Shown: positions 12,855 to 47,328, counted from the first letter of the stretch. The stretch is DNA of 64,000 nucleotides from Minisyncoccota bacterium (GCA_041662525.1 JBAZSF010000002.1:90196-154195), one strand, 5' to 3'. Notes: generated by a model not told the origin, from the letters alone. Program-made: numbers and translations.

Positions 12855-12948
12855 AAACTTTTTTCGGTACGGATTTTTTGAAGCTTAAAAAATCCTGAAG
12901 TTCTTGGCTCGTCAGCCTCGAAACCCCTTCAAAAGTTTATTTTTAATT
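12855..12948 (-). repeat. ~90-bp repeat family 2, copy 1
   Basis: ~85% identical to 47240-47328 in opposite orientation. It has aaactttt/aaaagttt ends and an internal ggatttttt-aagctt-aaaaaatcc hairpin. Confidence 0.6.
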
Positions 12949-12965
12949 TATAAATTAAAAATATT

Positions 12966-14183
12966 ATGCTTTTTTCATACAGCGCAAAATTAAAAACAGG
13001 GGAGATGCTCGAAGGTATTCTGGATGCCACTGATCGATATGCTCTCTCTAGAGAGTTGCGTTTTCGTGGCTATGTTCCATTGTCAATAACAGAAAAAAAA
13101 GAAAGTTTTGTTAATAAATTTTTAACATTATCTAATGTTTTTGTAAAAGTGAAGATCGGAGAAAAAATTATTTTGACTAAAAATTTAAGTGGAATGATTA
13201 AAGCCGGACTCTCACTTTCTAGAGCCTTGTCAGTTTTAAAAAAGCAAACAAAAAATTCTAAACTCAGTATAATATTAACTTCTATAACAAATGATATAGA
13301 TTCTGGAGAAACTTTTTCCTTTGCGCTCTCAAAGTTTCCTGATGTTTTTTCAAAACTTTTTATTTCAATGACTCGCGCTGGAGAAGAGTCTGGCAACCTT
13401 GCTGGAGCACTAACTGACATTGGATTAAATCTGGAAAAGTCTAATTCTTTAAATAAGAAAATAAAAGGAGCGCTTATTTATCCTGGAGTAATAATGTCGG
13501 CAATGGTCGTCATTGGTGTTTTGATGTTTGCTTTCGTGGTACCAACTTTAGCAAACACCTTCAAAGAGCTTGGTGTTAAATTACCCCTATCTACTCAAAT
13601 TATTATTTTTATTGGTAATTTTTTCTCTCATAATTTAATACTAACTTTTATAATCATATTTTGTGCAGCCTTTTGTCTCTTTTCTATTTTTCGCGCTAAA
13701 TTTATGGCGCCGTATATTGATTTTATTATTATGAAAATCCCAGTCGTTAATAATCTAACAAGAGAATTGAATACTGCTCGTACTGCGCGTACTGTTTCAT
13801 CACTTTTGTCTTCTGGTGTTTCTTTAACACGAGCGATTGAAATAACTGAAGATGTAGTACAAAATATTTATTATAAAAAAGTTTTAAATGAAGCGAAATT
13901 GAATATAGAAAAAGGAGAACCATTTTCTAAAGCATTTGAGGCTCATCTTAATTTATACCCTGTAATGATGTCAGAGATGATCCAGGTAGGAGAAGAAACA
14001 GGAAAATTGTCTGATATGTTGCTGGAGATTGCTTTATTTTATGAAGGAGAGGTAGAAAATAAAACCAAAAATCTTTCTACTATTATTGAGCCAGTACTTA
14101 TGATTTTTATTGGGTCGGCGGTAGGATTTTTTGCTATCTCTATGATTTCTCCAATGTATTCAATTTTAGGTAGCATAAATTAA
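12966..14183 (+). CDS. pilC: type IV pilus platform protein PilC/GspF
   Basis: Two GspF repeats and three TM segments. Confidence 0.85.
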   Translation: MLFSYSAKLKTGEMLEGILDATDRYALSRELRFRGYVPLSITEKKESFVNKFLTLSNVFVKVKIGEKIILTKNLSGMIKAGLSLSRALSVLKKQTKNSKLSIILTSITNDIDSGETFSFALSKFPDVFSKLFISMTRAGEESGNLAGALTDIGLNLEKSNSLNKKIKGALIYPGVIMSAMVVIGVLMFAFVVPTLANTFKELGVKLPLSTQIIIFIGNFFSHNLILTFIIIFCAAFCLFSIFRAKFMAPYIDFIIMKIPVVNNLTRELNTARTARTVSSLLSSGVSLTRAIEITEDVVQNIYYKKVLNEAKLNIEKGEPFSKAFEAHLNLYPVMMSEMIQVGEETGKLSDMLLEIALFYEGEVENKTKNLSTIIEPVLMIFIGSAVGFFAISMISPMYSILGSIN

Positions 14184-14674
14184 TGTCAATGATAAATTTT
14201 TTTAAAATCAAAAAAGCCTGCCCGCCAATGAGGCAGGGAATATCGGTGATAGAAATGTTAATTGTGATTACTGTGCTCGGCATCATCTTTTCAATTGTTA
14301 TTCCACAATTTTCAAAATCAAGAGAGATGCAAGTACTTAGAAGTGGAGTGGCTGATATCTTGTCTTCTATGGATAAGGCCCGCGGGGAAACACTTTCATC
14401 CTTTAATTCATCTTCTTATGGAGTGCATTTTCAATCTGATAAGATTATAATTTTTAAAGGCACAGTTTTTTCCGCTTTGGATGTGAATAACGAAACAATA
14501 AATATTGTAACACCAGCAAGTATTTCTAATATTGCATTAGTTGGCGGAGGAAGTGATTTTTATTTTAATCGTCTTTCAGGCTCGCCAAGTACCACTGGCA
14601 TGGTAACAATTTCTACCCCTTCTTATTCAAAAACAATTACAATTTATGCTACTGGAGTTATTAGTTCAAATTAA
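14183..14674 (+). CDS. type IV pilin / pseudopilin (prepilin-type N-terminal domain)
   Basis: N-terminal QGISVIEMLIVITVLGII class-III signal-like segment. The real start is possibly the ATG at 14228. Confidence 0.6.
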   Translation: MSMINFFKIKKACPPMRQGISVIEMLIVITVLGIIFSIVIPQFSKSREMQVLRSGVADILSSMDKARGETLSSFNSSSYGVHFQSDKIIIFKGTVFSALDVNNETINIVTPASISNIALVGGGSDFYFNRLSGSPSTTGMVTISTPSYSKTITIYATGVISSN

Positions 14675-14677
14675 ATA

Positions 14678-15154
14678 ATGAAAAAAATTATTAAAAACAG
14701 AGGGTTTGTGGTGGTGGAAGTGCTAGTAGCTGCTTCTATTATCACTGTTTCTATTTTATCTGCCATGATGGTTGCTCAAAAGTCTATTTATGTTTCTCGT
14801 CAAGCTTTTCATACAACTCAGGCAGGATTCTTATTAGAAGAAGGGGCAGAAGCGGTTCGAATACTTCGAGATAATGCCTGGAGTAATATTTCTAGTTTAA
14901 CTATTGGCACAAATTATTACCCGACTTTTTCTTCAAATACTTGGATTTTATCGCCCACAGCTAGCATTATAGGAATTTTTACTCGTACAGTCGTTATTGC
15001 AAACGTGAATCGTGACAATACCACTAAAGATATTTCTATTGTTGGTGCCGATGATCCTGGCACAAAATTAATTACAGTGACTGTGTCTTGGATGGAAGGA
15101 GGAGCAACAATTACTAAAACTTTACAATTTTATATATCTGATATATTTTCATGA
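14678..15154 (+). CDS. minor pilin / pseudopilin
   Basis: RGFVVVEVLVAASII prepilin-like N-terminus. Confidence 0.5.
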   Translation: MKKIIKNRGFVVVEVLVAASIITVSILSAMMVAQKSIYVSRQAFHTTQAGFLLEEGAEAVRILRDNAWSNISSLTIGTNYYPTFSSNTWILSPTASIIGIFTRTVVIANVNRDNTTKDISIVGADDPGTKLITVTVSWMEGGATITKTLQFYISDIFS

Positions 15155-15669
15155 CCCATTCGATAAAAACTCAGGGTCATAGTGAGCGAAGTAGAACTAT
15201 GATAAAAATTAATAAACAGAAAAATGGTTATGCTGTTCTAGAACTACTTTTTTATATTGCCTTTTTTACTGTTCTTTCCTCAGTAGTAATTAATGCGATG
15301 ATTACAATGACTAGATCATTTAAGGAAACCACAATACAGGCGGAGCTGGTGCAAAGTGGAAATATAATAGAAAGAATGTCTCGGGAAATCAGGCAAGCCA
15401 GTGATATTACCTCAATTAGTTCTACTGATTTAAAACTAAATGCAGTAGAATTTAAACTTTCAGGTTCAGATATTCAACTTTTTGAAAATGATATTTTTGT
15501 TGGGAATTTAAACACACCAAATATTATAGTGACTGCTCTTGCTTTTACCCAAATAACTACAGCAAAAGGTAAAGCTGTTAAAATAGAATTAACCTTAAAA
15601 TCAGCCAACGACACATCAGACAATACTAAAGATTTTTATGACACAATTGTATTAAGGGGTAATTATTAA
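15151..15669 (+). CDS. minor pilin / pseudopilin
   Basis: NGYAVLELLFYIAFF prepilin-like segment. Probable start at 15199. Confidence 0.45.
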   Translation: MTHSIKTQGHSERSRTMIKINKQKNGYAVLELLFYIAFFTVLSSVVINAMITMTRSFKETTIQAELVQSGNIIERMSREIRQASDITSISSTDLKLNAVEFKLSGSDIQLFENDIFVGNLNTPNIIVTALAFTQITTAKGKAVKIELTLKSANDTSDNTKDFYDTIVLRGNY

Positions 15670-15671
15670 TA

Positions 15672-16937
15672 ATGAAAAAAGATTTCAAAAAAATTAAGAA
15701 GAATAGTGGTGCAGCGATGTTGATATCTGTAATTTTCTTCCTTTTTATTTCTTTGGCAATAATTTCAGGACTGGTAGGGGGAACGGTGCGGGAATTTAAA
15801 ATAGCTAATGATTTAATAAAGTCTCGCCAGAGTTTATTTTTATCTGAATCTTCTATGGAAGATGCGTATTTTCGTCTCAAAACTGCTAAAACCATAGGAT
15901 CCAGTGAAACTATTGCTTTGGGAGGTAATTCAGCTACGTCTACAATAACAGATTCTGGTTACAATGAAAAAACTATTTCTTCTTTAGGTGATGTTAATTC
16001 TCGTCAAAGAAAAAATAAACTTATATTAAATACTGGTGCGGGAGTTTCTTTTAGTTATGGTATTCAGTCTGGTATAGGTGGGTTTGTTATTGGTAATGCG
16101 ATAGTGCATGGTAATGTTTATTCAAACGGGACCATTGCAGGATCTAATGGTGCTACTATTACAGGTTCTGCTTTTTCGGCTGGACCTTCTGGTTCTATTA
16201 ATAATGTAGATATTGGGCAGGATGGCGCAGGAGATGCTAGAGCTAATACTGTTTCTAATTCTACAATTGCCGGTAATCTTTATTGTCAAACTGGAATGAG
16301 TAATGGTGGTAAAAGTTGTGATACAGGAGAACCCAACCCAAGTATAATTGATATGCCTATTACTCAATCTATGATCGATAAATGGAAAGCTGATGCTGAA
16401 TTAGGGGAACCTGCTATTGTTGGTAATTTAACAATATCATCCCCAAGAACACTGGGACCCCAAAAAATTACTGGTGATTTAGATATCAATGCCAATCTTA
16501 CTATTACTGGAACTATTTATGTGATGGGCAATATTACTACTTCTAACGGCGCTCAAATTTCTTTAAGTAGTTCTTATGGTTCCACTGGTGGCATCATTGT
16601 TTCAGACGGACGAGTAGTCTTATCCAATAATGTTGAGTTTTTTGGTTCTGGTAGTGAGGGTAGTTATATCTTATTAACAACGACGAGTATTTGTCCCATT
16701 GGATGTTCTGGATTGAATGCTATAGAGATTTTAAATAATGTTGGTGCTATACTTGTAAATGCTCAGAATGGAACAGCTCATCTTAATAATAATGTTGAAT
16801 TAAATGAAGTGGTGGGGAATAAGATTATTGTAGATAATGGTGCAGAAATTCGTTATCTTTCAGGTCTTGCAAACTCTAATTTTTCTTCTGGTCCATCTGG
16901 TGGTTGGAATATAAAAAGTTGGGAAGAGGTGCAATAA
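15672..16937 (+). CDS. PilX-like large pilus-associated protein
   Basis: N-terminal hydrophobic GAAMLISVIFFLF segment followed by a G/S/N-rich beta-rich body. It is the last gene of the pilus operon. Confidence 0.4.
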   Translation: MKKDFKKIKKNSGAAMLISVIFFLFISLAIISGLVGGTVREFKIANDLIKSRQSLFLSESSMEDAYFRLKTAKTIGSSETIALGGNSATSTITDSGYNEKTISSLGDVNSRQRKNKLILNTGAGVSFSYGIQSGIGGFVIGNAIVHGNVYSNGTIAGSNGATITGSAFSAGPSGSINNVDIGQDGAGDARANTVSNSTIAGNLYCQTGMSNGGKSCDTGEPNPSIIDMPITQSMIDKWKADAELGEPAIVGNLTISSPRTLGPQKITGDLDINANLTITGTIYVMGNITTSNGAQISLSSSYGSTGGIIVSDGRVVLSNNVEFFGSGSEGSYILLTTTSICPIGCSGLNAIEILNNVGAILVNAQNGTAHLNNNVELNEVVGNKIIVDNGAEIRYLSGLANSNFSSGPSGGWNIKSWEEVQ

Positions 16938-16959
16938 ATTGTGTTATACTTTGTAAATT

Positions 16960-17742
16960 ATGCAAAATAAAAAAATAATTGTTGGTAATTGGAAAATGAA
17001 CCCACCTACTTCTAAAGAAGCTGAAAAGCTATTTTCTGATGTGGTAAAAGGAATTTCTGCAATAAAAAAAACAGTTAAAAAAACTGAAGTGGTGATTTGC
17101 CCACCTTTTATTTATCTAGAGAAATTAAAAAAAATTAGAACTACTAAAATAAATTTAGGCGCACAGAATGCTTTTGAAGGTGAAGTAGGTGCATTTACTG
17201 GAGAAGTTTCGCCTTATATGCTGTCTAGTATTGGTGTCAAATATGTAATATTGGGTCATTCGGAGAGACGCGCTTTTGGGGAGAGCAATAGTGACATAAA
17301 TAAAAAAATAAAATCTTCACTTGGCGCGGGGCTTAATCCGATATTGTGTGTTGGAGAAAATACTCGTGACGAGAGTCATGGTTATTTTAATTTAGTTAAA
17401 ACACAAATAGAAGAATGCTTGGCGGGAGTTTCTAGAAACTCAATTTTAAAAATTATCATTGCTTATGAACCAGTTTGGGCGCTCTCTAGTACTGTTAATC
17501 GCAAGGACGCCACCGCTTTTGATTCTAGAGAAATGACTCTTTTTATTCGCAAAATTCTTTCTGATAAATTTGGTAAAGATGCAGCCATAATGAGGATTAT
17601 TTATGGTGGTTCTGCTAATGAAAAAGATGCGGAAGATTTTCTCAAAAATGGAGGAGTAGACGGGTTACTCCCTGGTCGTGCTAGTTTGAATGCAAAAAAG
17701 TTTATAGAAATTGTAAAAATATGCGAAGCATCAAGTCAATAA
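16960..17742 (+). CDS. tpiA: triosephosphate isomerase
   Basis: IVGNWKMN and AYEPVWA motifs. Confidence 0.9.
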   Translation: MQNKKIIVGNWKMNPPTSKEAEKLFSDVVKGISAIKKTVKKTEVVICPPFIYLEKLKKIRTTKINLGAQNAFEGEVGAFTGEVSPYMLSSIGVKYVILGHSERRAFGESNSDINKKIKSSLGAGLNPILCVGENTRDESHGYFNLVKTQIEECLAGVSRNSILKIIIAYEPVWALSSTVNRKDATAFDSREMTLFIRKILSDKFGKDAAIMRIIYGGSANEKDAEDFLKNGGVDGLLPGRASLNAKKFIEIVKICEASSQ

Positions 17743-18764: not shown

Positions 18765-19140
18765 TTTTATTAGCAGTCTCTATTGATTCTCGGTCTTTAT
18801 ATTTTTTTGTTGGGAACATCGGCAAATTATCTTTAAAATATCTCGGAATTAAGTGAACATGAAAATGCGGAACATCTTTGCCGACGATGGATAATTGTAC
18901 GTAATCGCATCCGACTCCTTTTTTAATCGCAAGCATTAATTTTTTAGCTAATTTAAAAATTTCTGAAATTGTTTCATCATCTGCGTCTTGCATCCAAACT
19001 ATGTGTTTTTTTGGAATTATTAAAAGATGCCCATCGGAGACTGGCTGGATATCTAAAAAAGATAAAAAACTTTCGTCTTCATAGATTTGGGTGCAAGGAA
19101 TTTCTTTTTTTATTATTTTGCAAAAAATGCAGTCTGTCAT
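18748..19140 (-). CDS. HIT-family (histidine triad) hydrolase
   Basis: HFHVHLI triad and CxxC zinc motif. Confidence 0.85.
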   Translation of the reverse strand: MTDCIFCKIIKKEIPCTQIYEDESFLSFLDIQPVSDGHLLIIPKKHIVWMQDADDETISEIFKLAKKLMLAIKKGVGCDYVQLSIVGKDVPHFHVHLIPRYFKDNLPMFPTKKYKDRESIETANKIISEL

Positions 19141-19241
19141 ATAGAAAGTTTTATAAAATCAAAGTTTTCTCAGGTCCTCGGTTCTCCGGGTCCCTATCCC
19201 GGCCAGACCATTCAAAAACTTTATTTTATAAAACTTTCTAT
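19141..19241 (+). repeat. repeat family 1, copy A: 41-nt conserved core (19174-19212) flanked by a ~28-bp locus-specific inverted repeat
   Basis: Core GGTCCTCGGTTCTCCGGGTCCCTATCCCGGCCAGACCATT. The arms atagaaagttttataaaat / attttataaaactttctat are perfect reverse complements. It sits between the divergent HIT and recJ starts. Confidence 0.7.
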
Positions 19242-19263
19242 ATTGTATGCTAAAATTGCATTT

Positions 19264-21418: not shown

Positions 21419-21427
21419 TTATTTTTA

Positions 21428-22915: not shown

Positions 22916-22929
22916 AAAACTCGTTGAAG

Positions 22930-23030
22930 TCGTAACTTTTAAGAAACATTGCGCAGGCGGGTAGCCGAGCATAGCAAAAAATCAGCAGATTTTTATGCGT
23001 GTTGAGTAAAAGTTATGACGAGAAAGAGTT
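22930..23030. other. long imperfect hairpin between convergent genes (probable bidirectional terminator)
   Basis: gaagtcgtaactttta ... taaaagttatgacgag arms enclose ~65 nt. Confidence 0.35.
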
Positions 23031-23034
23031 TTCT

Positions 23035-23664: not shown

Positions 23665-24534
23665 ATGTCTAGAAATATCAAGCAGTATTGGCTGTTAATT
23701 TTTACATTTTTTCTTTTATTTACAACAGTTTTTCTATTTTATTTAGATTGGCAAAATACTTATCGTAGTTTTACTTTTGCTATGTTGGATGTCGGTCAAG
23801 GTGACGCGCTTTTTATAGAATCTCCGACAGGGACGCAGGTGATGTTTGATGGTGGTCCATCACGTAAAGTTTTAGGTCCACTCGCTCGGGTGATATCTCC
23901 ATTTGATAAAACTATTGATGCGTTGATAATTACTAATCCAGACGCTGACCACATCGGTGGGTTTATAGATATTTTAAAAAATTATAAAGTGGGTGCCGTC
24001 TTTGAGTCGGGTACTTTGACTGATTCTAAAATTTATCAGAATTTGACAGAAGAAATGAAGAGACAAAACATACCCGATGTTTTAGCTAGAAGGGGAATGA
24101 AGTTAGACCTTGGGGGCGGAGTAGTGATTGATATTTTATTTCCAGATAGAGATGTTTCTGAGTGGGCGACCAATGATGGGGGAGTAGTAGCACGACTTTC
24201 TCATGATAAAACATCCATAATGCTTACTGGCGATGCGAGCACAAAAACAGAACAAATAATTCTTTCAGAAAATTCTGAAGTGCAATTAAAAAGTACTATT
24301 TTAAAAATCGGACATCATGGTTCGCGGACCTCTTCCTCTCTAAGTTTTGTAAAAGCTGTTTCTCCAGAATACGCGCTTATTTCAAACAGTAAAGACAATA
24401 ACTATGGTCATCCACATCAAGAAACTTTAGATACATTAGTCAAATTTGGCGCAAATATTTTCCGTACTGATTTATTAGGTACAATAGTCATGAAATCTGA
24501 TGGTCAGAATGTCAATTTTTTATTCCACAAGTAG
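23665..24534 (+). CDS. membrane-anchored MBL-fold hydrolase (ComEC C-terminal-domain-like)
   Basis: N-terminal TM helix, then a metallo-beta-lactamase fold (VGQGDALFIE, NPDADHIGG, GHHGS) as found fused to ComEC in other bacteria. Confidence 0.7.
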   Translation: MSRNIKQYWLLIFTFFLLFTTVFLFYLDWQNTYRSFTFAMLDVGQGDALFIESPTGTQVMFDGGPSRKVLGPLARVISPFDKTIDALIITNPDADHIGGFIDILKNYKVGAVFESGTLTDSKIYQNLTEEMKRQNIPDVLARRGMKLDLGGGVVIDILFPDRDVSEWATNDGGVVARLSHDKTSIMLTGDASTKTEQIILSENSEVQLKSTILKIGHHGSRTSSSLSFVKAVSPEYALISNSKDNNYGHPHQETLDTLVKFGANIFRTDLLGTIVMKSDGQNVNFLFHK

Positions 24535-24562
24535 ACAAAAATAAATATGATATACTCATTTT

Positions 24563-26514: not shown

Positions 26515-26940
26515 ATGATAATCAAAGTTAAAAAACTTAGAGAAGATGCGAAGTTGCCGACCCACGGACATCCAGGGGATGCAGGGATGGATTTTTATTG
26601 TGTGGAAGATGTGCGTTTTCCACCCGGCAAGCAAGAGATAGTACGTACTGGTGTGGCTATTGAAATTCCAGAAGGCTATGTCGGCCTTATTTGGGATAAA
26701 TCAAGCATTTCTTTTAATTTAGGGTTAAAAGTTATGGGGGGTGTTATAGACTCTGGTTTTAGGGGTGAAATCACAATGAATTTTTTAAACGTTTCAAATA
26801 AAGAAGTATTGATAACAAAAGATCATAAAATTGCTCAAATGATAATTCAAAAATTTGAACATTGTGATATTGTAGAAACGGACGAGCTTTCGGAAACTGT
26901 GCGAGGAGAAGGGAGGGAGGGGAGCACAGGCAAAAAATAG
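26515..26940 (+). CDS. dut: dUTP diphosphatase
   Basis: GVIDSGFRGEI motif. Confidence 0.85.
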   Translation: MIIKVKKLREDAKLPTHGHPGDAGMDFYCVEDVRFPPGKQEIVRTGVAIEIPEGYVGLIWDKSSISFNLGLKVMGGVIDSGFRGEITMNFLNVSNKEVLITKDHKIAQMIIQKFEHCDIVETDELSETVRGEGREGSTGKK

Positions 26941-26987
26941 CGCCACGCTTTAGTGGACGATTGCGCGGCATGATTTCGTAAAATCAT

Positions 26988-28730
26988 ATGGAAAAAGAGA
27001 TAAAAAATTTAATCAAAGATGCGCTTAAAAATCTAAATATAGAGGTTAGTAATATTGTTCTTGAACATCCGGAAAATCTAAGTAATGGAGATTATTCTAC
27101 AAATGTGGCTTTAGCTATAGCAAAAAGTGTTGAGAGAAATCCTAAAGAATTAGCAGAAAAAATAATCGTAGAAATTTTAAGATTAAATGTTGATAAAAAT
27201 ATAGAAAAAGTAGAAGTTGCAGGCAGTGGGTTTATAAATTTCTACCTATCAAGAAAATATTTTTCTAAAAGTGTTGAAGAAATTTTAAATAATCCGGAAA
27301 ATTTCGGGAAAAATGACTCATTAGAAGGAAAAAAAATAATGGTGGAGTATACAGATCCTAATCCTTTCAAGCCTTTTCATATCGGGCACTTAATGAGTAA
27401 TGCCATTGGAGAATCAATCTCGCGCCTTGTGGAGTTTTCTGGGGCAGAGATTGCGCGAGCAAATTATCAGGGAGATGTCGGGCTTCATGTGGCCAAAGCT
27501 ATCTATGGACTTTTAGATAATGAAAAGTTACAAAACAAAAATGGAACTCATAATTTTCAAGCAGGAAATATCGGACAAGCATATGTAGCTGGAGCAGGAG
27601 CTTATGAAAATAATCCTGAGGCTAAAAAAGAAATAGATGAAATAAATAAAAAACTTTATGATAAGAACGACCAGAAAATAAATGAAATATATGATTGGGG
27701 TTTTAAAGTGACGATGGAAGCTTTTGAAGATTTATATAAAATGCTCGGCACAAAATTTGATTTTTATTTTTTAGAAAGCATGATGGCGGATATTGGGCGC
27801 GAAATTGTAAATGAAAATATGGGTAAGGCCGTAGGTCCTGAGAATAATCGAAGGATTTTTGAAGAATCCGATGGTGCTATTGTCTTTAAAGCTGAAAAAT
27901 ATGATCCTAAATTACACACTCGAGTTTTTATTACTTCAAAAAATTTACCAGCATATGAAACTAAGGAGCTTGGCTTAGCGGTAGAAAAATTCAAAACTTA
28001 TCCAGGTATGGATTTATCGATTGTGGTAACTGCTAACGAACAGATGGATTATATGCGTGTCGTAGCAAAAGCGATATCGCTTATTCATCCAGATTTTGAA
28101 AATAAGATGAAGCATGTCACACATGGGATGATGCGTCTCACTACTGGCAAGATGGGGTCTCGAAAAGGGAATGTCATTACTGGTGAATCATTGATAAATG
28201 AAGTTCGCGATACTATTTTAGACAAAATGACCGATAGAGATTTTTCTAATGAAGAGAGGGAAAAGATTGCAACGGAAGTTGGAATTTCTGCGTTAAAATA
28301 TTCTATATTGAAACAAGGAATTGGTGGAGATATTATATTTGATTTTGAAAAATCTATTTCTTTTGAAGGGGATTCAGGGCCATATTTGCAATATTCTTAT
28401 GCTCGCGCAAATTCAATTTTAGAAAAAGCGCAAAAAGAAAATATTTTGCCAGATCCACATGCTTTTCCGCCTGAAATTTTTGAAGTGGAAAAATTATTAT
28501 ACAAATTTCCAGAAGTTGTGTTACGTTCTTCTTCTTTATATGAACCGCACCATGTTGCGAATTATCTAATAGAAGTCGCTCGTGCTTATAGCAGTTTTTA
28601 TGGGAATAATATTATTGTAAATAGAGAAGACCCTAGTTCGTCTTATAAAATTGCTTTAACTTATGCGTTTTCTTTTGTAATGAAAAATGGTTTGCACCTC
28701 TTAGGCATCGTGGCTCCAAAGAAAATGTAG
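26988..28730 (+). CDS. argS: arginine--tRNA ligase
   Basis: HIGH-like PFHIGHLMS motif and a DALR anticodon-binding C-terminus. Confidence 0.9.
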   Translation: MEKEIKNLIKDALKNLNIEVSNIVLEHPENLSNGDYSTNVALAIAKSVERNPKELAEKIIVEILRLNVDKNIEKVEVAGSGFINFYLSRKYFSKSVEEILNNPENFGKNDSLEGKKIMVEYTDPNPFKPFHIGHLMSNAIGESISRLVEFSGAEIARANYQGDVGLHVAKAIYGLLDNEKLQNKNGTHNFQAGNIGQAYVAGAGAYENNPEAKKEIDEINKKLYDKNDQKINEIYDWGFKVTMEAFEDLYKMLGTKFDFYFLESMMADIGREIVNENMGKAVGPENNRRIFEESDGAIVFKAEKYDPKLHTRVFITSKNLPAYETKELGLAVEKFKTYPGMDLSIVVTANEQMDYMRVVAKAISLIHPDFENKMKHVTHGMMRLTTGKMGSRKGNVITGESLINEVRDTILDKMTDRDFSNEEREKIATEVGISALKYSILKQGIGGDIIFDFEKSISFEGDSGPYLQYSYARANSILEKAQKENILPDPHAFPPEIFEVEKLLYKFPEVVLRSSSLYEPHHVANYLIEVARAYSSFYGNNIIVNREDPSSSYKIALTYAFSFVMKNGLHLLGIVAPKKM

Positions 28731-31029: not shown

Positions 31030-34000
31030 ATGGCCAAAGAAATTCAGGAAGAAGAAAATAAAAGCGAAGCGGCTTTGCGGGAAGAGCGGATTTTAGAATT
31101 TTGGAAAGAAAATAAAACTTTTGAAAAAACTTTAAAACAAACGGAGGGCAAAAAAGAATTTATTTTTTACGAAGGTCCGCCGACAGCGAATGGCAAGCCA
31201 GGCATTCATCATTTAGAAGCGCGAGCATTCAAAGACGCAATTCCTAGGTATAAAACAATGCAGGGTTTCCATGTTCGTCGAAAGGGTGGATGGGATACAC
31301 ATGGGCTTCCCGTTGAGCTTCAGGTAGAAAAAAAGCTAGGGCTTAATTCTAAAAAAGCTATCGAAGAATATGGTATTGCGAAATTTAATCAAGAATGCAA
31401 AGAAAGCGTCTGGGAGTATTTAGATATTTGGAATAAATTTACTCATCGTATTGGATATTGGGTGGATCAAGAGAACCCGTATGTGACATATCACAACGAT
31501 TATATTGAATCTGTTTGGAATGTTGTTAAAGCAATAAATAAACAAAATTTACTTTATAAAGATTATAAAGTGGTGCCTTGGTGTCCTAGGTGTGGTACAG
31601 CTTTGTCCTCTCATGAACTTGCGCAGGGTTATGAAGATGTGAAAGATTTGTCTGTGTATGTGAAGTTTAAGGTTCGTTCTGTCCCCGAAAGATTTTCTCA
31701 GGTCCTCGGAACTCCCTCTCCCTATCCCGGCCAGACCATTCAAAAACCTTCCGGGGACTTTACTTATATTCTTGCTTGGACGACAACTCCGTGGACACTT
31801 CCTGGGAATGTAGCATTGGCAGTAGGAGAAAATATTATTTATGTAAAAATAGAAAAACCTGCCTCGACGCAAGGCGGGGGAAAAGAATTTTTAATTTTAG
31901 CAAAAGAAAGACTTTCTATTTTAGAAGGGGAATATAAAATAATTGAAGAATTTATAGGCAAAGATTTAATTGGATTGGAATACGAGCCTCTTTATCCATA
32001 TCTTGCTGACACAATTTCTGAAAGTGAAAAACCTAAATTAGAAAAAGCTTTCAAGGTTTATGGAGCGGATTTTGTAACGACAGAAGACGGTACAGGGGTA
32101 GTGCATACGGCAGTGATGTACGGACAGGATGACTTTGAGCTTGGTACAAAGGTTGGTTTGCCAAAGCATCATATTGTCGGTCTAGATGGAAAATTTTTAC
32201 CGGGTACTGGAATATTTGAAGGTAGATTTGTGAGAGATGAAGACGTGGCGGTAGATGTGATAAAAGATTTAGCGCATAGAGGAAATGGAGGGCTTTTATT
32301 TAAAAAAGAAAAATACGAGCATTCCTATCCGCATTGTTGGAGATGCAAAACGGCACTTATTTATTACGCTCGAGATTCTTGGTATATAAAAGTCTCTGAT
32401 CCTAAAATAAAAGAAAGAATGATAGCCGAGAACAAAGAAGTAAATTGGGAACCAGCACATATTCGGGATGGGCGTTTTGGTGAATGGTTAAGGGAGATAA
32501 AAGATTGGGCGATTTCTCGTGAGCGATATTGGGGTACACCTTTGCCTGTTTGGATTTGTGAATCTTGCAAGAAGATTGACGTCATCGGGAGCATTGAAGA
32601 TTTAAAAAATAAAACTAAAAAATTTGGCAATAAATATTTTGTAATGAGACATGGTGAAGCAGAAAATAATGCTCTTTGTATTTATTCTTCCAATCAAAAA
32701 ATAAATCATTTGACAAAGCTCGGACAAACGGAAGTTGAAAAGACATCCCAAGTTCTTTTGAACAAAAAAATTACCAAGATTTATTGCTCGCCCTTTTTAA
32801 GAACACGAGAAACTGCCGAAATCGTTGCAGAGCAGATAAATTTCCCTAAAGATAGAATTATTTACGATGATAGAATTCGAGAATTAGAATTTGGAGATTT
32901 TTCTGATTGTAGAGAGGAGGATTTTTGGGATTTTATAAAAAATAAAGATTGGGGATTTGATACAGTTGTCCCTGGAGGGGAGAGCCACCAAAATGCAAAG
33001 AATCGAATGGGAGATTTTCTTTATGAAATTGATCAAAAAAATAAAGATGAAACGATTTTAATTATTTCGCATGGATTAGCAATAGAAATGATTCCAGCTA
33101 TTATTGAAGGAGCAGATAAAAAGCGTTCACTCGAAATTTTCCATTCACATATATGCGACAAACCAGCTTCATTGCACAAAGAACATGAATTTGTTTTTCT
33201 TCCCCATAACGCAGACTATGAACTTGATTTACATAAACCTTTTATAGATGAAGTTAATCTGATGTGCACCCATTCTACTGGCAGAGGGCAAGTATGTGGG
33301 GGAAAATTAACTCGCACTCGCGAGGTGATGGATGTCTGGTTTGATTCTGGATGTATGCCATTTGCGCAAGATCATTATCCCTTCGATTTCTCTCAGGGCA
33401 AGCCTTTTGAGGAGACCGAAATTTTATACCCTGCAGATTTTATTTCGGAAGCAATAGATCAGACTCGTGGATGGTTTTATACTTTGCATGCTGTTGGAAT
33501 ACTTATGGGGCGAGGGAAAGCATATAAAAATGTAATTTGTCTTGGACATTTACTCGATTCCAAAGGTAAAAAAATGTCTAAATCTCTTGGTAATATTGTC
33601 GACCCTTGGGAGATGATAGAAAAATACGGAGTGGATACATTGAGACTCTGGATGTATTCAGTCAATCAACCTGGAGAATCTAAAAATTTTGATGAAAAAA
33701 CTGTCGCTCTTCTCCACCAACAAGTTTTTGGTTTGCTTTATAATGTGCTCGCTTTCTATGAGCTTTATCGAGATAATTCTATCAATGCCCATTCGACAAG
33801 CTCAGGACAAATATCAAGTACTAACGTTCTTGATATTTGGATTTTAGCACGGCTAGATGAATTGATTAGCGAATCCACAAAAAAAATGGATAATTATAAA
33901 TTGCTTGAACCAGTGCGAGCGATAAAGGATTTTATTGGGGACCTTTCTACTTGGTATTTGCGTCGTTCACGTGAGCGGATAAAGAATGGAGATAGGCAAG

Positions 34001-39648: not shown

Positions 39649-39663
39649 GTGTCTAAAAAGTAA

Positions 39664-39725
39664 GAAAGCCCTTCCGTAAGAAGGGCTTTTATGATGAACG
39701 GGATAAATATTATCCCGATTTTTTG
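39664..39725 (+). terminator. two tandem terminator hairpins
   Basis: aaagcccttc-cgta-agaagggcttt and cgggataaatattatcccg followed by atttttt. Confidence 0.7.
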
Positions 39726-39900: not shown

Positions 39901-40001
39901 AAGATAAGAAAACAACATCTAAATAAAAAATTAGCATATTGAAGACAAAAGTCAAGAAAGCGTTATTTTTATAAATAATTTTTTGTGTTAGAATAGATTT
40001 T

Positions 40002-41270: not shown

Positions 41271-41358
41271 GCAGTTTTTTAAATTGATTGACTATTTTAA
41301 AGAATAGAGTAGATTAAAAAAAGAGAAAAAAATTGAAACTTGAAAAGGGGGTAAAAAA

Positions 41359-41829: not shown

Positions 41830-41877
41830 GGCCGAAGGAAGAGCTGAAGCTCCTCCTTCGGCCCTTTCTTATTTTTA
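41829..41877 (+). terminator. rho-independent terminator
   Basis: gggccgaaggaag-agctgaagc-tcctccttcggccc followed by a T run. Confidence 0.85.
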
Positions 41878-41901
41878 TAAATTTTATGCTATGATATTTT
41901 T

Positions 41902-42984
41902 ATGCCAGAAAAAAGTGATTTGACTCATATTTCCATATCCACCAGCACGATATTTAAGTTTTTTCTAGTACCTATTTTTATATTCCTATTATATTTTTTG
42001 AGGGATTTAGTTTTAGTGGTTTTGACGGCCATCGTAATAGCTTCTTTTATTGACTCATCTGTTCCACACTTTAAAAAAATAGGAATTAAGAATAGAATTT
42101 TTGGGATTGTTATTTTTTATACTATCTCTCTTCTCCTTTTGGGTGGCGTGTTTTATCTTTTTGCTCCGCTTTTAATAACAGAAATTTATAATTTCTCCAC
42201 TTTTCTTTCAACCTATACTCAAGATGTTTCATTCTTTAATTTTTTCAAGAACGAAGCATTCTCTGGCGCAAAAGACATAGTCGGGACTCTTTCAGGAAAT
42301 TTTTCGCTCACTACACTTTTATCTGTATCAAAAGCTTTTGTTTTGAATCTTTCTGGAGGATTTGTACAAATTCTTTTTATTGCTTTTGGTGGTCTTTTCA
42401 ATTTTGTTTTAATTATTCTTTTATCTTTCTATCTTTCAGTTCAAGAAAAAGGAATAGAGAATTTTCTTTATATTATTACTCCTCCTAAATATGATAATTA
42501 TGTTGTAGATTTATGGACGCGCTCAAGTCGTAAAATAGGTCTTTGGGTGAAAGGACAAATGCTTTTAGGTCTTGTGGTCGGAGTTCTTGTTTATTTAATT
42601 CTTTCTTTGTTAGGTATCGAATATGCATTACTTTTAGCTATTATTACAGGAATAATGGAAATGGTTCCTTATGGTATTTTAGTAGCGATGATTCCTGTTT
42701 TTGCCTTTTCTTACATTTCAAACGGTATAGGCAGTGCCTTTATGGTGGCAGGAGCTTATATCATTGTTCATGAATTTGATGTATTTCTTTTTACTCCACT
42801 ACTTATAAAAAAGATTGTTGGGCTTTCCCCGATTGTTATTATTCTCTCTGTAGTTATCGGCTTTGAATTAGGAGGAATTTGGGGAGCGATCTTAGCGATT
42901 CCACTCGCGATAATTTTAATGGAATTCTTAAATGATATTGAGAAAGATAAGATTTCGTCCAAAATAAACCAAGACAAACAATGA
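41902..42984 (+). CDS. AI-2E family (PerM/UPF0118) membrane transporter
   Basis: ~8 TM helices at the length typical of this family. Confidence 0.6.
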   Translation: MPEKSDLTHISISTSTIFKFFLVPIFIFLLYFLRDLVLVVLTAIVIASFIDSSVPHFKKIGIKNRIFGIVIFYTISLLLLGGVFYLFAPLLITEIYNFSTFLSTYTQDVSFFNFFKNEAFSGAKDIVGTLSGNFSLTTLLSVSKAFVLNLSGGFVQILFIAFGGLFNFVLIILLSFYLSVQEKGIENFLYIITPPKYDNYVVDLWTRSSRKIGLWVKGQMLLGLVVGVLVYLILSLLGIEYALLLAIITGIMEMVPYGILVAMIPVFAFSYISNGIGSAFMVAGAYIIVHEFDVFLFTPLLIKKIVGLSPIVIILSVVIGFELGGIWGAILAIPLAIILMEFLNDIEKDKISSKINQDKQ

Positions 42985-44444
42985 ACAAAAATAGTTTTTA
43001 CATCACGACGACGATACCCTATGTGAATGCTGATCCTCACATTGGTTTTGCACTCGAACTTGTGCAAGCTGATGCTGTTGCGAGATGTCAGCGTCTCATT
43101 GGTAGGGATGTTTTTTTTAGCACTGGTACTGATGAATATGGTCAGAAAATTTGGGAAGCAAGTGAAAAACAAGGTAAAAAAGTTCAAGACTACGTAGATT
43201 ATTACGCGCAGAAATTTTTAGATTTAAAAAATACTCTCAATCTTTCCTATGATAATTTTATTCGAACTACTAGTAAAGAAAATATCACAGCCGCACAAGA
43301 ATTTTGGCTCCTATGCGATAAAAAGGGAGATATTTATAAAGCAAAATATATAGGACTTTACTGTGTGGGGTGTGAGACTTTTTATACCGAAAAAGATTTA
43401 GTAGAAGAAAAGTGCCCGATACATTTGACTGTGCCAGAGAAAATAGAAGAAGAAAATTATTTTTTTAAATTGAGTAATTACAAAAAACAACTTCTTTTAT
43501 ATTTATCTAATGAAAAAGCGATCTTGCCAGAATGGAGACGCAAAGAAGCAATTTTTTTTGTAGAAAATGCAATGGAAGATTTTTCTATTTCTCGCAGTAA
43601 AAAGCGTGTTTCGTGGGGGATACCTATTCCCGGGGATGATGAACAAGTCATGTATGTTTGGTTTGGTGCTTTTGTAAATTATATTTCAACCTTAGGCTGG
43701 CCCTTCGCTTCTACTCAGGATCTCCGACCAGAAACAAAAGAAAATTTATTTGAAAAATTTTGGGAAAAAGGGGAAAAGATCCAAATGGCTGGTAAAGATA
43801 TGGTGAAGTTTCAATCAGTAATGTGGCAAGGCATGCTCATGTCCGCAGGACTCCCCAATACAGATACTATTGTTTATCATGGGTTTATAACTGGCGATGG
43901 AGGAATTAAAATGTCTAAGTCTTTGGGTAATGTGATTAACCCAAATGATATTGTAAAAGAATATAGCGCAGATGCGTTACGTTATTTTCTTTTGCGTGAG
44001 ATTTCTCCTTTTGAAGACAGTCCGTTTACCATGGAAAGGTTTAAGGAAGCATACAATGCGGGTCTAGCAAATGGATTAGGAAATTTAGCTTCAAGAATAT
44101 TAACTCTTTCAGAAAAATATTTACCCGAGTGTCCGGAAATAAGAGAGGAAATGGATCTAACAGAATTTTTTAGTTTTTTTGAAAAATTTGATGTTAAACA
44201 AGCTGTTGATTTCATTTGGAACGAGATAGGTGAATTAGATAAATTTATTCAGGAAACAGAACCATTTAAGGTGGTAAAAGTTGATGAAGAAAAAGGAAAA
44301 GAATTAATTTCTAATATGGTTGTTCGTCTGTATAAAATTGCCAGGATGTTAAATCCAATAATGCCAGAAACAAACATTATTCTCAAAAAATTAATTAAAG
44401 AAAACAAAAAACCAGACCAGCCATTATTTTTAAGAAAAGAATAA
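42981..44444 (+). CDS. metG: methionine--tRNA ligase (short form)
   Basis: PHIGF (HIGH variant) and KMSKS motifs. Confidence 0.9.
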   Translation: MNKNSFYITTTIPYVNADPHIGFALELVQADAVARCQRLIGRDVFFSTGTDEYGQKIWEASEKQGKKVQDYVDYYAQKFLDLKNTLNLSYDNFIRTTSKENITAAQEFWLLCDKKGDIYKAKYIGLYCVGCETFYTEKDLVEEKCPIHLTVPEKIEEENYFFKLSNYKKQLLLYLSNEKAILPEWRRKEAIFFVENAMEDFSISRSKKRVSWGIPIPGDDEQVMYVWFGAFVNYISTLGWPFASTQDLRPETKENLFEKFWEKGEKIQMAGKDMVKFQSVMWQGMLMSAGLPNTDTIVYHGFITGDGGIKMSKSLGNVINPNDIVKEYSADALRYFLLREISPFEDSPFTMERFKEAYNAGLANGLGNLASRILTLSEKYLPECPEIREEMDLTEFFSFFEKFDVKQAVDFIWNEIGELDKFIQETEPFKVVKVDEEKGKELISNMVVRLYKIARMLNPIMPETNIILKKLIKENKKPDQPLFLRKE

Positions 44445-44445
44445 A

Positions 44446-45297
44446 ATGACTCCCAAATACATAGACATACATTCACATTTAAATTTTAAGGCTTTTAATG
44501 ATGATAGAGATGAGGTTATTAAACATGCCTTAGATAATGATACTTGGGTGATAAATGTAGGAAGCCAGTTTAGCACTTCAAAAAGAGCAGTGGAAATTGC
44601 TAATAAATATTCCGAGGGAGTTTTTGCTATCGTTGGTCTACATCCGATTCATCTTGAAGAATCTTATCACGATGATGAAGAATTTAGTGGTTTAGGTTTT
44701 AAAACAAGAGTTGAAGAATTTGATAAAGATGTTTATAGAGAACTTTTGAAAGATCCAAAGGTAGTAGCGATAGGGGAATGTGGTTTGGATTATTTTCATT
44801 GTAGTTTAGAGACAATAGAAAAACAGAAAAAAACTTTTAGAGAGCACGTTTCTTTGTCTCAAGAAACTGGGAAGCCACTCATGTTGCATGTTAGAAATGG
44901 TTCGACAAGCTCACCACAAGTAATTCCAAAACTAAACGCGTATCAAGATGTTTTAGAAATTTTAAAAGAATTTACTGGGGTAAGGGGAAATGTACATTTT
45001 TTTGCTGGAACCTGGGAAGACGCCAAAGCATTTTTAGATTTTGGTTTTACCTTATCTTTTACTGGAGTTATTACTTTTACGCATGATTATGATGAAGTTA
45101 TTAGAAATATACCACTTGATATGATCATGTCGGAGACTGATTCTCCTTATGTAGCGCCCATTCCGCACAGAGGAAAGCGCAATGAACCTGTCTACGTAAG
45201 AGAAATAGTTAAAAAAATCGCTGAAATTAAAAATTTACCAGAACAGGAAGTGGCAGAGGCAATTGTCGCAAATGCCAAGCGAGTCTTTACTTTTTAA
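44446..45297 (+). CDS. tatD: TatD-family metal-dependent DNase/hydrolase
   Basis: IDIHSHLNF and GECGLDY motifs. Confidence 0.85.
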   Translation: MTPKYIDIHSHLNFKAFNDDRDEVIKHALDNDTWVINVGSQFSTSKRAVEIANKYSEGVFAIVGLHPIHLEESYHDDEEFSGLGFKTRVEEFDKDVYRELLKDPKVVAIGECGLDYFHCSLETIEKQKKTFREHVSLSQETGKPLMLHVRNGSTSSPQVIPKLNAYQDVLEILKEFTGVRGNVHFFAGTWEDAKAFLDFGFTLSFTGVITFTHDYDEVIRNIPLDMIMSETDSPYVAPIPHRGKRNEPVYVREIVKKIAEIKNLPEQEVAEAIVANAKRVFTF

Positions 45298-45312
45298 AGA
45301 GTTTTTGATAGT

Positions 45313-45816
45313 ATGAAACCTATGCAAGAAGTAGAAAATGAAATATTAGAAGAAGGAAATTCTAAGGTTTATGAGCTTGGTTACCATTTGGTGCCGACAC
45401 TTTCCGAAGAAGACGTACCAGTTACTTTTGGTAATTTAAAAGAGCTTATTTCATCATTGGATGGCATCTTCATTTCTGAAGAAATGCCTAAAATGATGAC
45501 ACTTGCTTACCCTATGGTTAAAGTTATAGCCAATTTACGTAATAAATTTAAAAGTGCATATTTTGGTTGGATCAAGTTTACAATGGATTCAGATAAAGTT
45601 CTTAAATTAAAAAAGAAGCTTGATCTTGATCCTAATTTTGTTCGATTTTTGATATTGAAAACAGTTAAAGAAAATACTGTCAACACAAAAAGATTTACTC
45701 GTGGAGAATTTACAAATAGAAAAACAAAGATAGATAAGAGTAGGGAAGATGAAGCATCTGCTCCTATAAATAAAGAAGAAATTGATAAAGAGATAGATGC
45801 ATTAATTTCGGTTTAA
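45313..45816 (+). CDS. rpsF: ribosomal protein S6 (extended C-terminus)
   Basis: YELGYHLVP...MMTLAYPM pattern. It sits in the classic rpsF-ssb-rpsR arrangement. Confidence 0.7.
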   Translation: MKPMQEVENEILEEGNSKVYELGYHLVPTLSEEDVPVTFGNLKELISSLDGIFISEEMPKMMTLAYPMVKVIANLRNKFKSAYFGWIKFTMDSDKVLKLKKKLDLDPNFVRFLILKTVKENTVNTKRFTRGEFTNRKTKIDKSREDEASAPINKEEIDKEIDALISV

Positions 45817-45826
45817 TAAAAAATAT

Positions 45827-46285
45827 ATGTATTTAAATAAAGCAATATTAATAGGAAATCTTACACGTGATCCAGAACTCCGTTCACTACCTTCAGGTAT
45901 AAAAGTTTGCACATTTTCTATTGCCACTAATCGTGTTTGGAAAGATAAAAATGGCGCACGTCAGGAATCAGCTGATTATCACAATATAGTAGTTTTTGGA
46001 CGCCAAGCAGAGACAGTTGCTCAATATATGAAAAAAGGAAGTTCTATATTGATTGAAGGTAGGATGCAGACCAGAAGTTGGGAAGATAAAACAAGTGGGG
46101 AGAAAAAATATCGTACGGAAATAGTCGCTGATCGTACACAATTTGGTCCTAAGGGAGGAAATACAGGTGGAGGAATGAGCACAACGAGTACTGGTTCAAA
46201 GGCTCCAGCATCAGAAGGGGGTGGAGAAATTGATTCTATAGAATATCCAGAAGAAGACATTAATCCAGAAGACATACCATTTTAA
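45827..46285 (+). CDS. ssb: single-stranded DNA-binding protein
   Basis: OB fold and acidic C-terminal tail ending in DIPF. Confidence 0.85.
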   Translation: MYLNKAILIGNLTRDPELRSLPSGIKVCTFSIATNRVWKDKNGARQESADYHNIVVFGRQAETVAQYMKKGSSILIEGRMQTRSWEDKTSGEKKYRTEIVADRTQFGPKGGNTGGGMSTTSTGSKAPASEGGGEIDSIEYPEEDINPEDIPF

Positions 46286-46295
46286 TAATTTAACA

Positions 46296-46362
46296 CAGGC
46301 GCTAGGCGCTAGGCATTAGCAATTAAAAAAGCTAGAGCCTAAAGCCTAAGGCCTAAAGCCTA
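46296..46362 (+). repeat. intergenic hexamer repeats forming an imperfect hairpin (ggcgctaggcgctaggc ... gcctaaagcctaaggcctaaagcctag)
   Basis: Direct repeats of ggcgct/aggc and agccta/aggcct are mutually reverse-complementary. They lie between ssb and rpsR. Confidence 0.5.
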
Positions 46363-46366
46363 GAAT

Positions 46367-46567
46367 ATGAAACAAGATTATTTTTCAACTAATAATATAA
46401 AATACATAGATTACAAGGATATTGAAATTCTAAAGAAATTTTTAAATCCTAATGGTAAGATAATGAACCACAAGCGGACTGGAGTTACCGCTAAGAATCA
46501 ACGCCAATTAACCACAGCCATCAAGCGTGCTAGATTTATGGGTTTGCTTCCGTTTGTAATTAAATAA
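46367..46567 (+). CDS. rpsR: ribosomal protein S18
   Basis: Conserved S18 core (YIDYKD...RTGV...QR.L..AIKRAR). Confidence 0.85.
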
Positions 46568-46580
46568 AAAAGATAAAATA

Positions 46581-46608
46581 AAAAATCCCCGAAAGGGGAT
46601 TTTTTATT
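46581..46608. terminator. bidirectional terminator
   Basis: aaaaatcccc-gaaa-ggggattttt lies between convergent rpsR and efp. Confidence 0.8.
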
Positions 46609-47187
46609 TTAAACTCTCTCTACATATTCTCCTGTTTCCGTATTTACTCGGATAATGTCTCCCTCGTTGATGAACATCGGAGTAGTGAGGGTGGCACCGT
46701 TTTCTAAAGTGATAACTTTATTGCCTCCTTTAGAAGTGTCTCCACGGACAGCTGGAGGGGCTTCTTTAACTTTAAATTCCATTTTGATAGGTAAGGTTAT
46801 TTTTATTATTACTTCTTCATCATCATTGTCCCAGATTAAGGCAGTTACATTTCCATTTTGTTTAAAGAATTTGGCAGTATTTCCAACAAGGTTCTCATCT
46901 AATTTAAATCTATTGCTTTTATCATTTGGGTCACAGAACCAATATTCGCCTTTATTATGATAAAGAAAAGTAATGTCTCTCTTAATAATATCCGCTTCCT
47001 CGGCTGATTCAGCTGCATGAAAAGTAGCAGGGAAGACCTTGCCAGATATTAAACTTCTTAGTTTAACCTGATTTTGTGGTTTGCGTTGTTGGGTACGAGC
47101 AACGTGAGATTCTATCACTTCGCAGGGTTCATCATTATGTATAATTATTTTCTTTTCGCGAATGTCGCTGTATTCTAATTTAGCCAT
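46609..47187 (-). CDS. efp: elongation factor P
   Basis: The N-terminal KOW domain aligns with EF-P, and OB domains follow. Confidence 0.85.
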   Translation of the reverse strand: MAKLEYSDIREKKIIIHNDEPCEVIESHVARTQQRKPQNQVKLRSLISGKVFPATFHAAESAEEADIIKRDITFLYHNKGEYWFCDPNDKSNRFKLDENLVGNTAKFFKQNGNVTALIWDNDDEEVIIKITLPIKMEFKVKEAPPAVRGDTSKGGNKVITLENGATLTTPMFINEGDIIRVNTETGEYVERV

Positions 47188-47239
47188 AGGTAATATACTA
47201 GCAGAAAAATTTATTAAATCAAATTAAAAAACCTTGGAT

Positions 47240-47328
47240 ATAACTTTTCGAAAGGGTTTCGAGGCTGTCGAGCCGAGAATTTCAGGAATTTTTAAGCTTC
47301 AAAAATTCCGTACTGGAGAAAAGTTTAT
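47240..47328 (+). repeat. ~90-bp repeat family 2, copy 2
   Basis: aacttttcgaaagggtttcgaggctgtcgagccgagaatttcaggaatttttaagcttcaaaaattccgtactggagaaaagttt is ~85% identical to the reverse complement of 12855-12948. Confidence 0.6.

Follow-up and report, generated by a model that had tools for sequence, protein, structure and literature searches.

The window analysed here is a 64,000-nt stretch of DNA from a Minisyncoccota bacterium (GCA_041662525.1 JBAZSF010000002.1:90196-154195) that carries two copies of one repeat, each filling the spacer between two genes. Copy 1 (12840-12953, + strand) lies between the pilB stop codon at 12837 and the pilC start codon at 12966, and copy 2 (47226-47342, - strand) lies between the recA stop codon at 47347 and the efp start codon at 47187. 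These sites had been named in a first-pass annotation of the sequence, and Pfam bears out the neighbouring genes: a T2SSE ATPase (pilB-type) and a T2SSF protein (pilC-type) flank copy 1, and RecA and EF-P flank copy 2. We call the strand starting GGTAC the top strand; it is the + strand for copy 1 and the - strand for copy 2, and at both sites it is the sense strand of the neighbouring genes. The two stretches are probably old, immobilised copies of a family of MITEs, or miniature inverted-repeat transposable elements, found in Patescibacteria (Nomurabacteria/Paceibacterota). That they are similar and lie in opposite orientation, as first proposed, was upheld by pattern searches, by shuffles and by a covariance model, R1, which scores copy 1 at 110.9 bits (E 1e-30) and copy 2 at 104.4 bits (E 1e-28). 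With filters off, the same model finds no third copy in the window, the next-best match scoring 15.7 bits. Two non-overlapping sub-patterns each have exactly 2 matches in the 64 kb and 0 in 100 shuffles. The first-pass annotation described a repeat of ~90 bp with ends aaactttt/aaaagttt. The repeat is real and its size was underestimated, since these 8-mers are the inner portion of inverted arms of 23-28 nt (pairs I6 and I16, with arm extension); the full units are therefore 12840-12953 and 47226-47342, or 114-117 nt. The hairpin ggattttttaagcttcaaaaaatcc and the segment tcgaggctgNcgagcc described earlier are both present, having been given as the reverse strand.

Folding assigns both copies the same architecture, a long outer stem (P1) capped by a three-way junction, with a conserved core of 62 nt. 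Along the top strand the core begins with GG, which closes P1 with the CC at its 3′ end, and continues with junction UAC, hairpin P2 (GGAUUUUUU, loop GAAGCUU, AAAAAAUCC), junction UGAAG, hairpin P3 (UUC, UC, GGCU, loop CGNC, AGCC, UC, GAA) and junction ACC. The copy 1 unit follows from inverted-repeat pair I16 and from arm extension, which give 28-nt arms and a length of 114 nt. Its P1 arms, a locus-specific 5′ arm at 12840-12865 with an AATTA-like start at 12846 and a 3′ arm at 12928-12953, enclose the core at 12866-12927, which was placed by model R1, column conservation and pair counts. Within this core, GG/CC closing pairs join 12866-67 with 12926-27, and UAC, UGAAG and ACC occupy 12868-70, 12896-900 and 12923-25, respectively. 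P2 (12871-12895, from the fold and pair counts) has a 9-bp stem and a loop that includes the palindrome AAGCTT, and P3 (12901-12922) pairs UUC with GAA and GGCU with AGCC around a 2x2 internal loop and ends in the loop CGUC. The internal loop reads UU/UC in copy 1 and UC/UC in most family copies. The copy 2 unit is bounded by pair I6, with 23-nt arms that are 87% complementary, and folds at -40.1 kcal/mol (z = -7.3). Model R1 and the sequence place its core at 47253-47314 on the - strand, with P2 (GGAAUUUUU/AAAAAUUCC) at 47285-47309 and P3 (UUC, UC, GGCU, loop CGAC, AGCC, UC, GAA) at 47258-47279. The only overlapping open reading frame (ORF) of at least 60 aa noted at copy 2 (47234-47440, 68 aa, TTG start) lies on the strand opposite recA and reaches into that gene.

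The two 62-nt cores differ at 7 positions (~89% identity, by our own count from the two sequences), and three core or arm differences between the window copies are compensatory. In P2, GGAU/AUCC in copy 1 becomes GGAA/UUCC in copy 2, a U-A to A-U swap, and the closing pairs of P1 change from GG/CC to AG/CU. The outer arms of the two copies are entirely unlike in sequence, and complementarity is kept within each copy. Pair counts over 100 sequences that are mutually <90% identical extend this pattern to the family: 88.7% of cells are paired as against 79.1% in shuffles, 247 cells are changed on both sides as against 73, and such changes occur in 20 of 25 pairs. None of 500 shuffles reaches the observed values, and slid registers likewise fall far below them. 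The junction nucleotides are invariant or nearly so in 100-107 sequences. Folding of aligned copies, which had been proposed as a check, thus yields a conserved secondary structure with covariation. Nor is the similarity a matter of low-complexity AT-rich sequence, which would have told against the repeat; the conserved portion is the relatively GC-rich core. One pairing from the first folds, P3a (CUGAAG/CUUCAG), was dropped after its G/A polymorphism proved to have no covariation on the 3′ side.

One of the searches described below used a pattern from the 5′ half of the core that left P3 unconstrained and so gave an unbiased view of it. Its stem occurs as GGCU/AGCC, GCGC/GCGC, GUGC/GCAC, GCUC/GAGC and others, and its base as UUC/GAA, UUU/AAA, CUC/GAG or UGC/GCA. 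In one variant the UC/UC internal loop has moved by two pairs and the total length is still 22 nt. Extra GC-rich hairpins occur inside or beside the P2 loop at L031 (6247-6399), L048, L097, L107 and L114, and L097 and L107 share one P2-loop insert of ~42 nt in opposite orientations. A diverged sister core (GCACGGAUAUUUUU...AAAAAUUCCUCGUGCUCGCGCCGUCGCGCUCCCAAG), also at a hairpin tip, was seen at L081 (1220-1295), L182 (4858-4931) and L206 (5824-5890) and scores just 20-22 bits against the profile of the family studied here.

Further copies, for which the first-pass annotation had recommended a nucleotide search, are numerous and spread across many Patescibacteria genomes. Searching one genome per species for a pattern taken from the 3′ half of the core gave at least 115 stretches from at least 48 assemblies, and among the matches listed all hosts are Patescibacteria, labelled Nomurabacteria, Paceibacterota, Minisyncoccia, Vogelbacteria and, for some metagenome-assembled genomes, Saccharibacteria. 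Among the same matches an assembly contributes up to 14 stretches (14 from MFTH01). The independent 5′-half pattern found at least 120 further stretches on more than 100 metagenome contigs. Searching 1.72 Mb of fetched DNA with nhmmer gave 277 copies, of which ~41 lie beyond the matches that anchored the fetched regions, or ~one per 40 kb; extrapolating from these 41 extra copies suggests roughly 20 copies per genome. Viral contigs gave no match with the more specific pattern and one chance match, in GC-rich coding DNA, with the other, and phage and plasmid collections gave no match to the element. We found no earlier description in the literature searched, the coverage of which was incomplete, so that a prior description is possible; a 2024 review of prokaryotic MITEs (PMC10969869) does not mention the phylum Patescibacteria.

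The evidence that these repeats have moved comes from better-preserved members of the family. A full-length unit of ~143 bp consists of a variable middle stem set between the ends CTTTGAATTACGAAACTC...GAGTTTCGTAATTCACGA and topped by the 62-nt apical core. Assembly MFTH01 holds at least 12 near-identical copies with these ends, in unrelated contexts and flanked by 7-bp direct repeats, which shows a recent burst of the element in one genome. Among 21 copies with terminal repeats, 10 have a 7-bp target-site duplication at the fixed offset as against 1 of 21 for a shifted control, and several more have the duplication shifted by one base. Insertion polymorphism is seen at window 24525-24545, an empty site orthologous to one where L013 has the element; hairpin and core are both absent from it. 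Together with a median unit size of 130 nt (114-117 nt in the window, too short for any gene-length ORF), which falls in the range of about 50-500 bp that defines MITEs, the family thus combines the small size, terminal inverted repeats, fixed-length duplication, dispersed copies and insertion polymorphism of MITEs. The suggestion that the two stretches are a MITE or a structured small RNA therefore stands as regards terminal inverted repeats, 7-bp duplications, many copies in many genomes, polymorphism and a covarying fold, and falls as regards the 8-mers taken for its termini, which are internal to the stem. Target-site duplications, proposed as a further check, are present at full-length family members, and reading the flanks of the two window copies revealed none. 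The ends of the window copies are degenerate, amounting to AATTA...TAATT inside the complementary arms, and we take these copies to be old on the strength of such ends and of the lack of a visible duplication. The recA-efp spacer evidently turns over between related genomes, as L017 (5040-5750), the closest relative found for this region, has a recA-efp spacer of ~670 nt with GC-rich palindromes at its borders and without the element. A look-up of the RecA product of the window returned no recorded gene with exactly that product.

Comparison of orthologous sites revealed an unusual distribution of constraint. In 59 orthologous pairs, identity is 94% for the core, 67-74% for the arms and 70-80% for the coding DNA on either side; copy 1 and its counterpart in L046 share 98.4% of the core and 71.8% of the flanks. 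The core nevertheless does not keep its orientation, being flipped in 41 orthologous pairs and in the same orientation in 63 (~40% flipped), and some flipped pairs have recognisably homologous outer arms. About half of the MFTH01 copies have an interior that is inverted with respect to the terminal 5 nt. Cores are also replaced. Hairpins of L015, L088 and L038 that carry the studied core are the orthologues of a window hairpin (19139-19243) that has the outer arm ATAGAAAGTTTT in common with them and holds a different core of 45 nt. Yet another core stands at window 22916-23032, where L099 carries the studied one, and in L037, L115 and L078 this third core, in place of the usual one, is enclosed by the ends CTTTGAATTACGAAACTC/GAGTTTCGTAATTCACGA along with asymmetric blocks of 6 nt, one per side. 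Between orthologous sites, P3 variants differ as much as they do in random pairs (3.7-4.2 vs 4.1 differences). Concerted evolution was considered as the only cause of core conservation and set aside for want of a strong signal: cores show on average 2.4 differences within a genome and 2.7 at orthologous as well as at random loci, and several P3 variants coexist within one genome.

The replacing cores form families of their own. The second has a GC-rich 45-nt core (CUCAGGUCCUCGGUUCUCCGGGUCCCUAUCCCGGCCAGACCAUUC) at the tips of locus-specific long hairpins at window 19139-19243 (+) and 48429-48524 (-), with the core also at 31697-31742 (+); it covaries (CCGGG/CCCGG to CUGGG/CCCAG), has 12 matches in the fetched DNA and was considered as twister-like, for which no meaningful Rfam match was obtained. 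The third (UUGCGCAGG...AGCAUAGCAAAAAAUCAGCAG...) lies at window 22916-23032 and 51111-51256, with 7 matches, and in L037, L078 and L115 it sits inside the terminal repeats and scaffold of the element studied here. Two other recurrent sequences were noted. A motif of ~50 nt, GCGYCRCGCUUUARUGGACGRUUGCGCGRCAUGAUUUCGUAAAAUCA, at window 26935-26990 (+) and 7364-7413 (-) stands directly 5′ of an ATG in 9 loci and resembles a 5′-leader element; at 26935 it fills a spacer in which L039 carries the studied element. Palindromes with TTCGGACGTCCAACGTCCGAA / ACGTCCGAATCC recur at window 57334-57355, 57433-57454 and 57641-57683 and resemble another small repeat.

Position relative to genes bears on whether the hairpins could act as terminators, or on whether copy 1, within the pilus genes, could be an intra-operon attenuator as the first-pass annotation had it. 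None of 204 instances lies within an open reading frame. Co-directional genes flank the element in sense in 69 cases and in antisense in 32, and 46 contexts are convergent and 21 divergent. An excess of convergent over divergent contexts by a factor of two is what terminators would produce, and at window 46574-46611 a simple bidirectional terminator stands at the site where L017 carries the element; copy 2 is also followed by a run of six T. On the other hand, neither window copy has a consensus terminator, and no T-run follows the hairpin foot family-wide, the mean T content of the next 8 nt being 2.80 on the top strand and 2.76 on the bottom strand over the 204 instances, which is background and equal on both strands. 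Half of the copies lie between co-directional genes with the upstream stop codon a median of 5 nt within the hairpin foot and the next ATG a median of 8 nt past it, which leaves no room for a promoter; at the window copies the only promoter match is one at chance level (9/12) at 47375-47346, in the end of recA upstream of copy 2. Termination would have no need of an invariant 62-nt core, and its orientation is not conserved; inversion at ~40% of orthologous sites is hard to reconcile with any orientation-dependent RNA signal. An intrinsic terminator or attenuator is therefore quite improbable, and the attenuator proposed for copy 1 finds no support. Ordinary terminators of this DNA look different, being hairpins of A-tract, short GC clamp and T-tract with 16-19-nt arms at window 4356-4396, 8802-8843, 11006-11041, 46574-46611 and 63965-63997; they are symmetric and hence potentially bidirectional.

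The element may also be read as a structured RNA with a function for the host, that is, a cis-acting module such as a binding site for an RNA-binding protein or ribonuclease, whose MITE-like spread would be its means of dispersal. Much of what is seen in the sequences suits this proposal: a core better conserved than the adjacent coding DNA, invariant junction nucleotides, compensatory changes in all three helices, a P2 loop that accepts inserted hairpins, copies that are strictly intergenic and wedged tightly between open reading frames, and an orientation bias of 69:32 in co-directional contexts. It is at odds with the frequent flipping of the core between orthologous sites and with the finding that the same site elsewhere may hold an unrelated core, a simple terminator or nothing. 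The stem sequences are themselves near-invariant, which would be unusual if the fold alone were constrained. We regard a host-functional RNA as possible, and the wrong side of even.

A further difficulty for a host RNA comes from the strands. Transition-type departures from Watson-Crick pairing are nearly always A.C on the top strand, which corresponds to G.U on the bottom strand; the ratio of A.C to G.U on the top strand is 20:1 in P3 and 28:2 in P2 plus P3. The arms show a wobble-type skew of 100:20, or 67:16 without one recurrent position, and the skew tracks the core in every gene context. Mutation bias was examined as a cause of the A.C excess and rejected because simple hairpins between co-directional genes in the same DNA show G.U 24 : A.C 16 on the gene-sense strand and because the skew follows the core in all contexts. 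Where the top strand has the UC/UC internal loop, the bottom strand has a tandem GA/GA. On the bottom strand the same helices gain 4.5 kcal/mol in stability in 99 of 100 sequences, and only there is the whole junction recovered by RNAalifold. In two thirds of co-directional cases this wobble-favoured strand is antisense to the flanking genes, which argues against a host RNA.

Another reading makes the core a single-stranded-DNA module. What moves or recombines would then be the core itself, its folded strand would be recognised by a structure-specific enzyme, as with IS200/IS605 ends, REP/RAYT or integron attC sites, and it would enter or flip at the tips of palindromes already in place. In keeping with this, the wobble signature tracks the core rather than the genes, the folding advantage and the full junction belong to one strand, cores are re-assorted among orthologous hairpins with P3 variants no closer than random pairs, other small hairpins occupy the P2 loop in either orientation (L097, L107), and one scaffold is common to three core families. 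Yet where mobility is visible it is the entire unit that moves, with its 7-bp duplication, and neither hairpin nor core is present at the empty site. No candidate enzyme came to light, and GC skew, with the coding-strand part separated from the replication part, gave no consistent orientation relative to replication (79:36 overall and 11:11 in copies antisense to their genes). On balance we consider a module of this kind unlikely.

A self-cleaving ribozyme is a further candidate: the three-way junction has variable helices around junction nucleotides that do not vary, it is present in many copies per genome beside other conserved small cores, and the top strand bears a partial likeness to hammerhead core motifs (CUGAAG, GAAA, GUA). 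A hammerhead is defined by the core CUGANGA, invariant A6, G8 and A9, GAAA, a UH cleavage site and three helices. On the top strand, CUGAAGU puts U at A9, and the G8 position is A in 33/107 and 43/117 copies; on the bottom strand, CUGNCGA sits in the P3 hairpin loop, and the A6 position is A, U or G. The hammerhead reading thus fails on defining positions. With Rfam 15 at gathering thresholds the entire window gave 0 matches, not even tRNA, and at E <= 10 the regions around both copies gave chance-level matches only (E 0.75-9), none of them to hammerhead, twister, pistol or hatchet at either copy. Invariance of the helices is atypical of ribozymes as well. A new self-cleaving ribozyme carried by the repeat is accordingly very improbable.

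In overall behaviour, the closest analogue is ERIC. The ERIC/IRU sequences of Enterobacteria (~127 bp) are imperfect palindromes that form a long hairpin, are strictly intergenic and usually lie in transcribed regions. They occur in either orientation in tens to hundreds of copies, are strongly conserved across species and have variants with inserts at fixed internal sites. The element described here is likewise an intergenic long hairpin in either orientation with inserts in variants. It differs from ERIC in having no sequence similarity to it, another phylum as host, a three-way-junction tip, locus-specific outer arms, a 7-bp duplication and an exchangeable core. An RNase E effect of ERIC is cited in PMC10969869.

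Inversion is a feature in common with the Correia element of Neisseria (CREE). In Correia elements the duplication is TA, the 26-bp terminal repeats are conserved, and promoters and an IHF site are present. Some of this is also given in PMC10969869, where Correia is described as a MITE with long terminal inverted repeats that is co-transcribed with its neighbours and for which inversion and RNase III cleavage are documented. The Patescibacteria element, unlike Correia, has a 7-bp duplication, is least conserved at its ends, and no promoter consensus was found at the window copies. REPINs also form long intergenic hairpins and persist vertically at orthologous sites, and their single-stranded folded form matters; each is built from two short REP palindromes bearing a conserved 5′ tetranucleotide, produces no target duplication and is RAYT-dependent. 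The studied element matches them as a long intergenic hairpin that persists at orthologous sites, and departs from them in its one asymmetric 62-nt core and its 7-bp duplication; no RAYT was found with it, none having been sought. The absence of target duplication extends to known single-strand transposons in general, and the IS200/IS605 and REP/RAYT types are marked by subterminal hairpins, a conserved cleavage tetranucleotide and a Y1/HUH transposase. Membership in these types was rejected on account of the 7-bp duplication. Integron attC sites have R″/R′ boxes (RYYYAAC / GTTRRRY) at their ends, a variable centre and flanking mobile gene cassettes. This assignment was rejected too, the element having a conserved centre, variable ends and housekeeping genes at orthologous positions as neighbours; what it has in common with attC is a favoured folded strand that is often antisense to genes. 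The pneumococcal repeats BOX, RUP and SPRITE are small structured intergenic repeats that cluster and insert into one another (PMC10969869). The hairpins nested in the P2 loop are comparable to that nesting; the sequences are unrelated, BOX is linear-modular (boxA-B-C), and only the element studied here has a three-way-junction core. Among known MITEs more broadly, inversion, nested insertion and RNase III cleavage have all been described (PMC10969869).

The reading we favour, that the window copies are old and immobilised MITEs, could be put together as follows. The element would be mobilised in trans by a transposase with staggered cuts of 7 bp, no gene for which was found in the fetched DNA. 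Once inserted, its outer arms would drift and yet remain complementary, and the apical core would be inverted and sometimes swapped for the core of another family, probably via recombination or template switching, either of one inverted arm with the other or with further copies. Near-invariance of the core would be kept by selection on a single-stranded, folded three-way junction of the bottom strand. In the pilB-pilC and recA-efp spacers the elements are probably passive passengers; if transcribed, their 114-117-nt hairpins would loop out and bring the stop codon upstream near to the start codon downstream. Judging from the Correia and ERIC elements, our best guess at an effect on the cell would be processing by a double-strand-specific RNase or altered mRNA stability.

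Several observations weigh against this account. The interior covaries and is much better conserved than the ends, unlike ordinary MITEs, in which it is the terminal repeats that are conserved, and transposition of double-stranded DNA leaves such an interior unexplained. A cut-and-paste model does not predict the strand-asymmetric wobble mismatches. A search for an autonomous element found no pair of terminal repeats 0.4-4 kb apart in the 1.7 Mb of fetched DNA, and the window copies themselves have degenerate ends and no visible duplication. The constraint on the core can still be read in three ways: as selection for mobility through a single-stranded intermediate, as a host-functional folded RNA, or as an apical cassette that moves independently. 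A broader proposal is, in our estimate, slightly more doubtful even than the DNA module discussed above. On this view selection would act on the 62-nt junction rather than on the hairpin around it. The junction would be a strand-specific single-stranded module, either RNA or DNA, and one of at least three interchangeable cassettes that are set into, flipped at and traded among the tips of intergenic hairpins in Patescibacteria; it might be a new catalytic or protein-recruiting RNA, or the structure recognised by an undescribed system of recombination at hairpin tips.

Patescibacteria have tiny, streamlined genomes with little non-coding DNA, and yet they keep this element in many copies, with a tip more conserved than the adjoining recA or pilB. 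A core that acts as RNA or as folded DNA would be a functional element that spans the phylum and has escaped annotation. A purely selfish one would mean a MITE in which selection acts on the interior instead of the ends and which undergoes inversion and exchange in place. In practice, the family and its sister cores account for many of the conserved intergenic hairpins that have looked odd in these genomes, and covariance model R1 can be used to annotate them.

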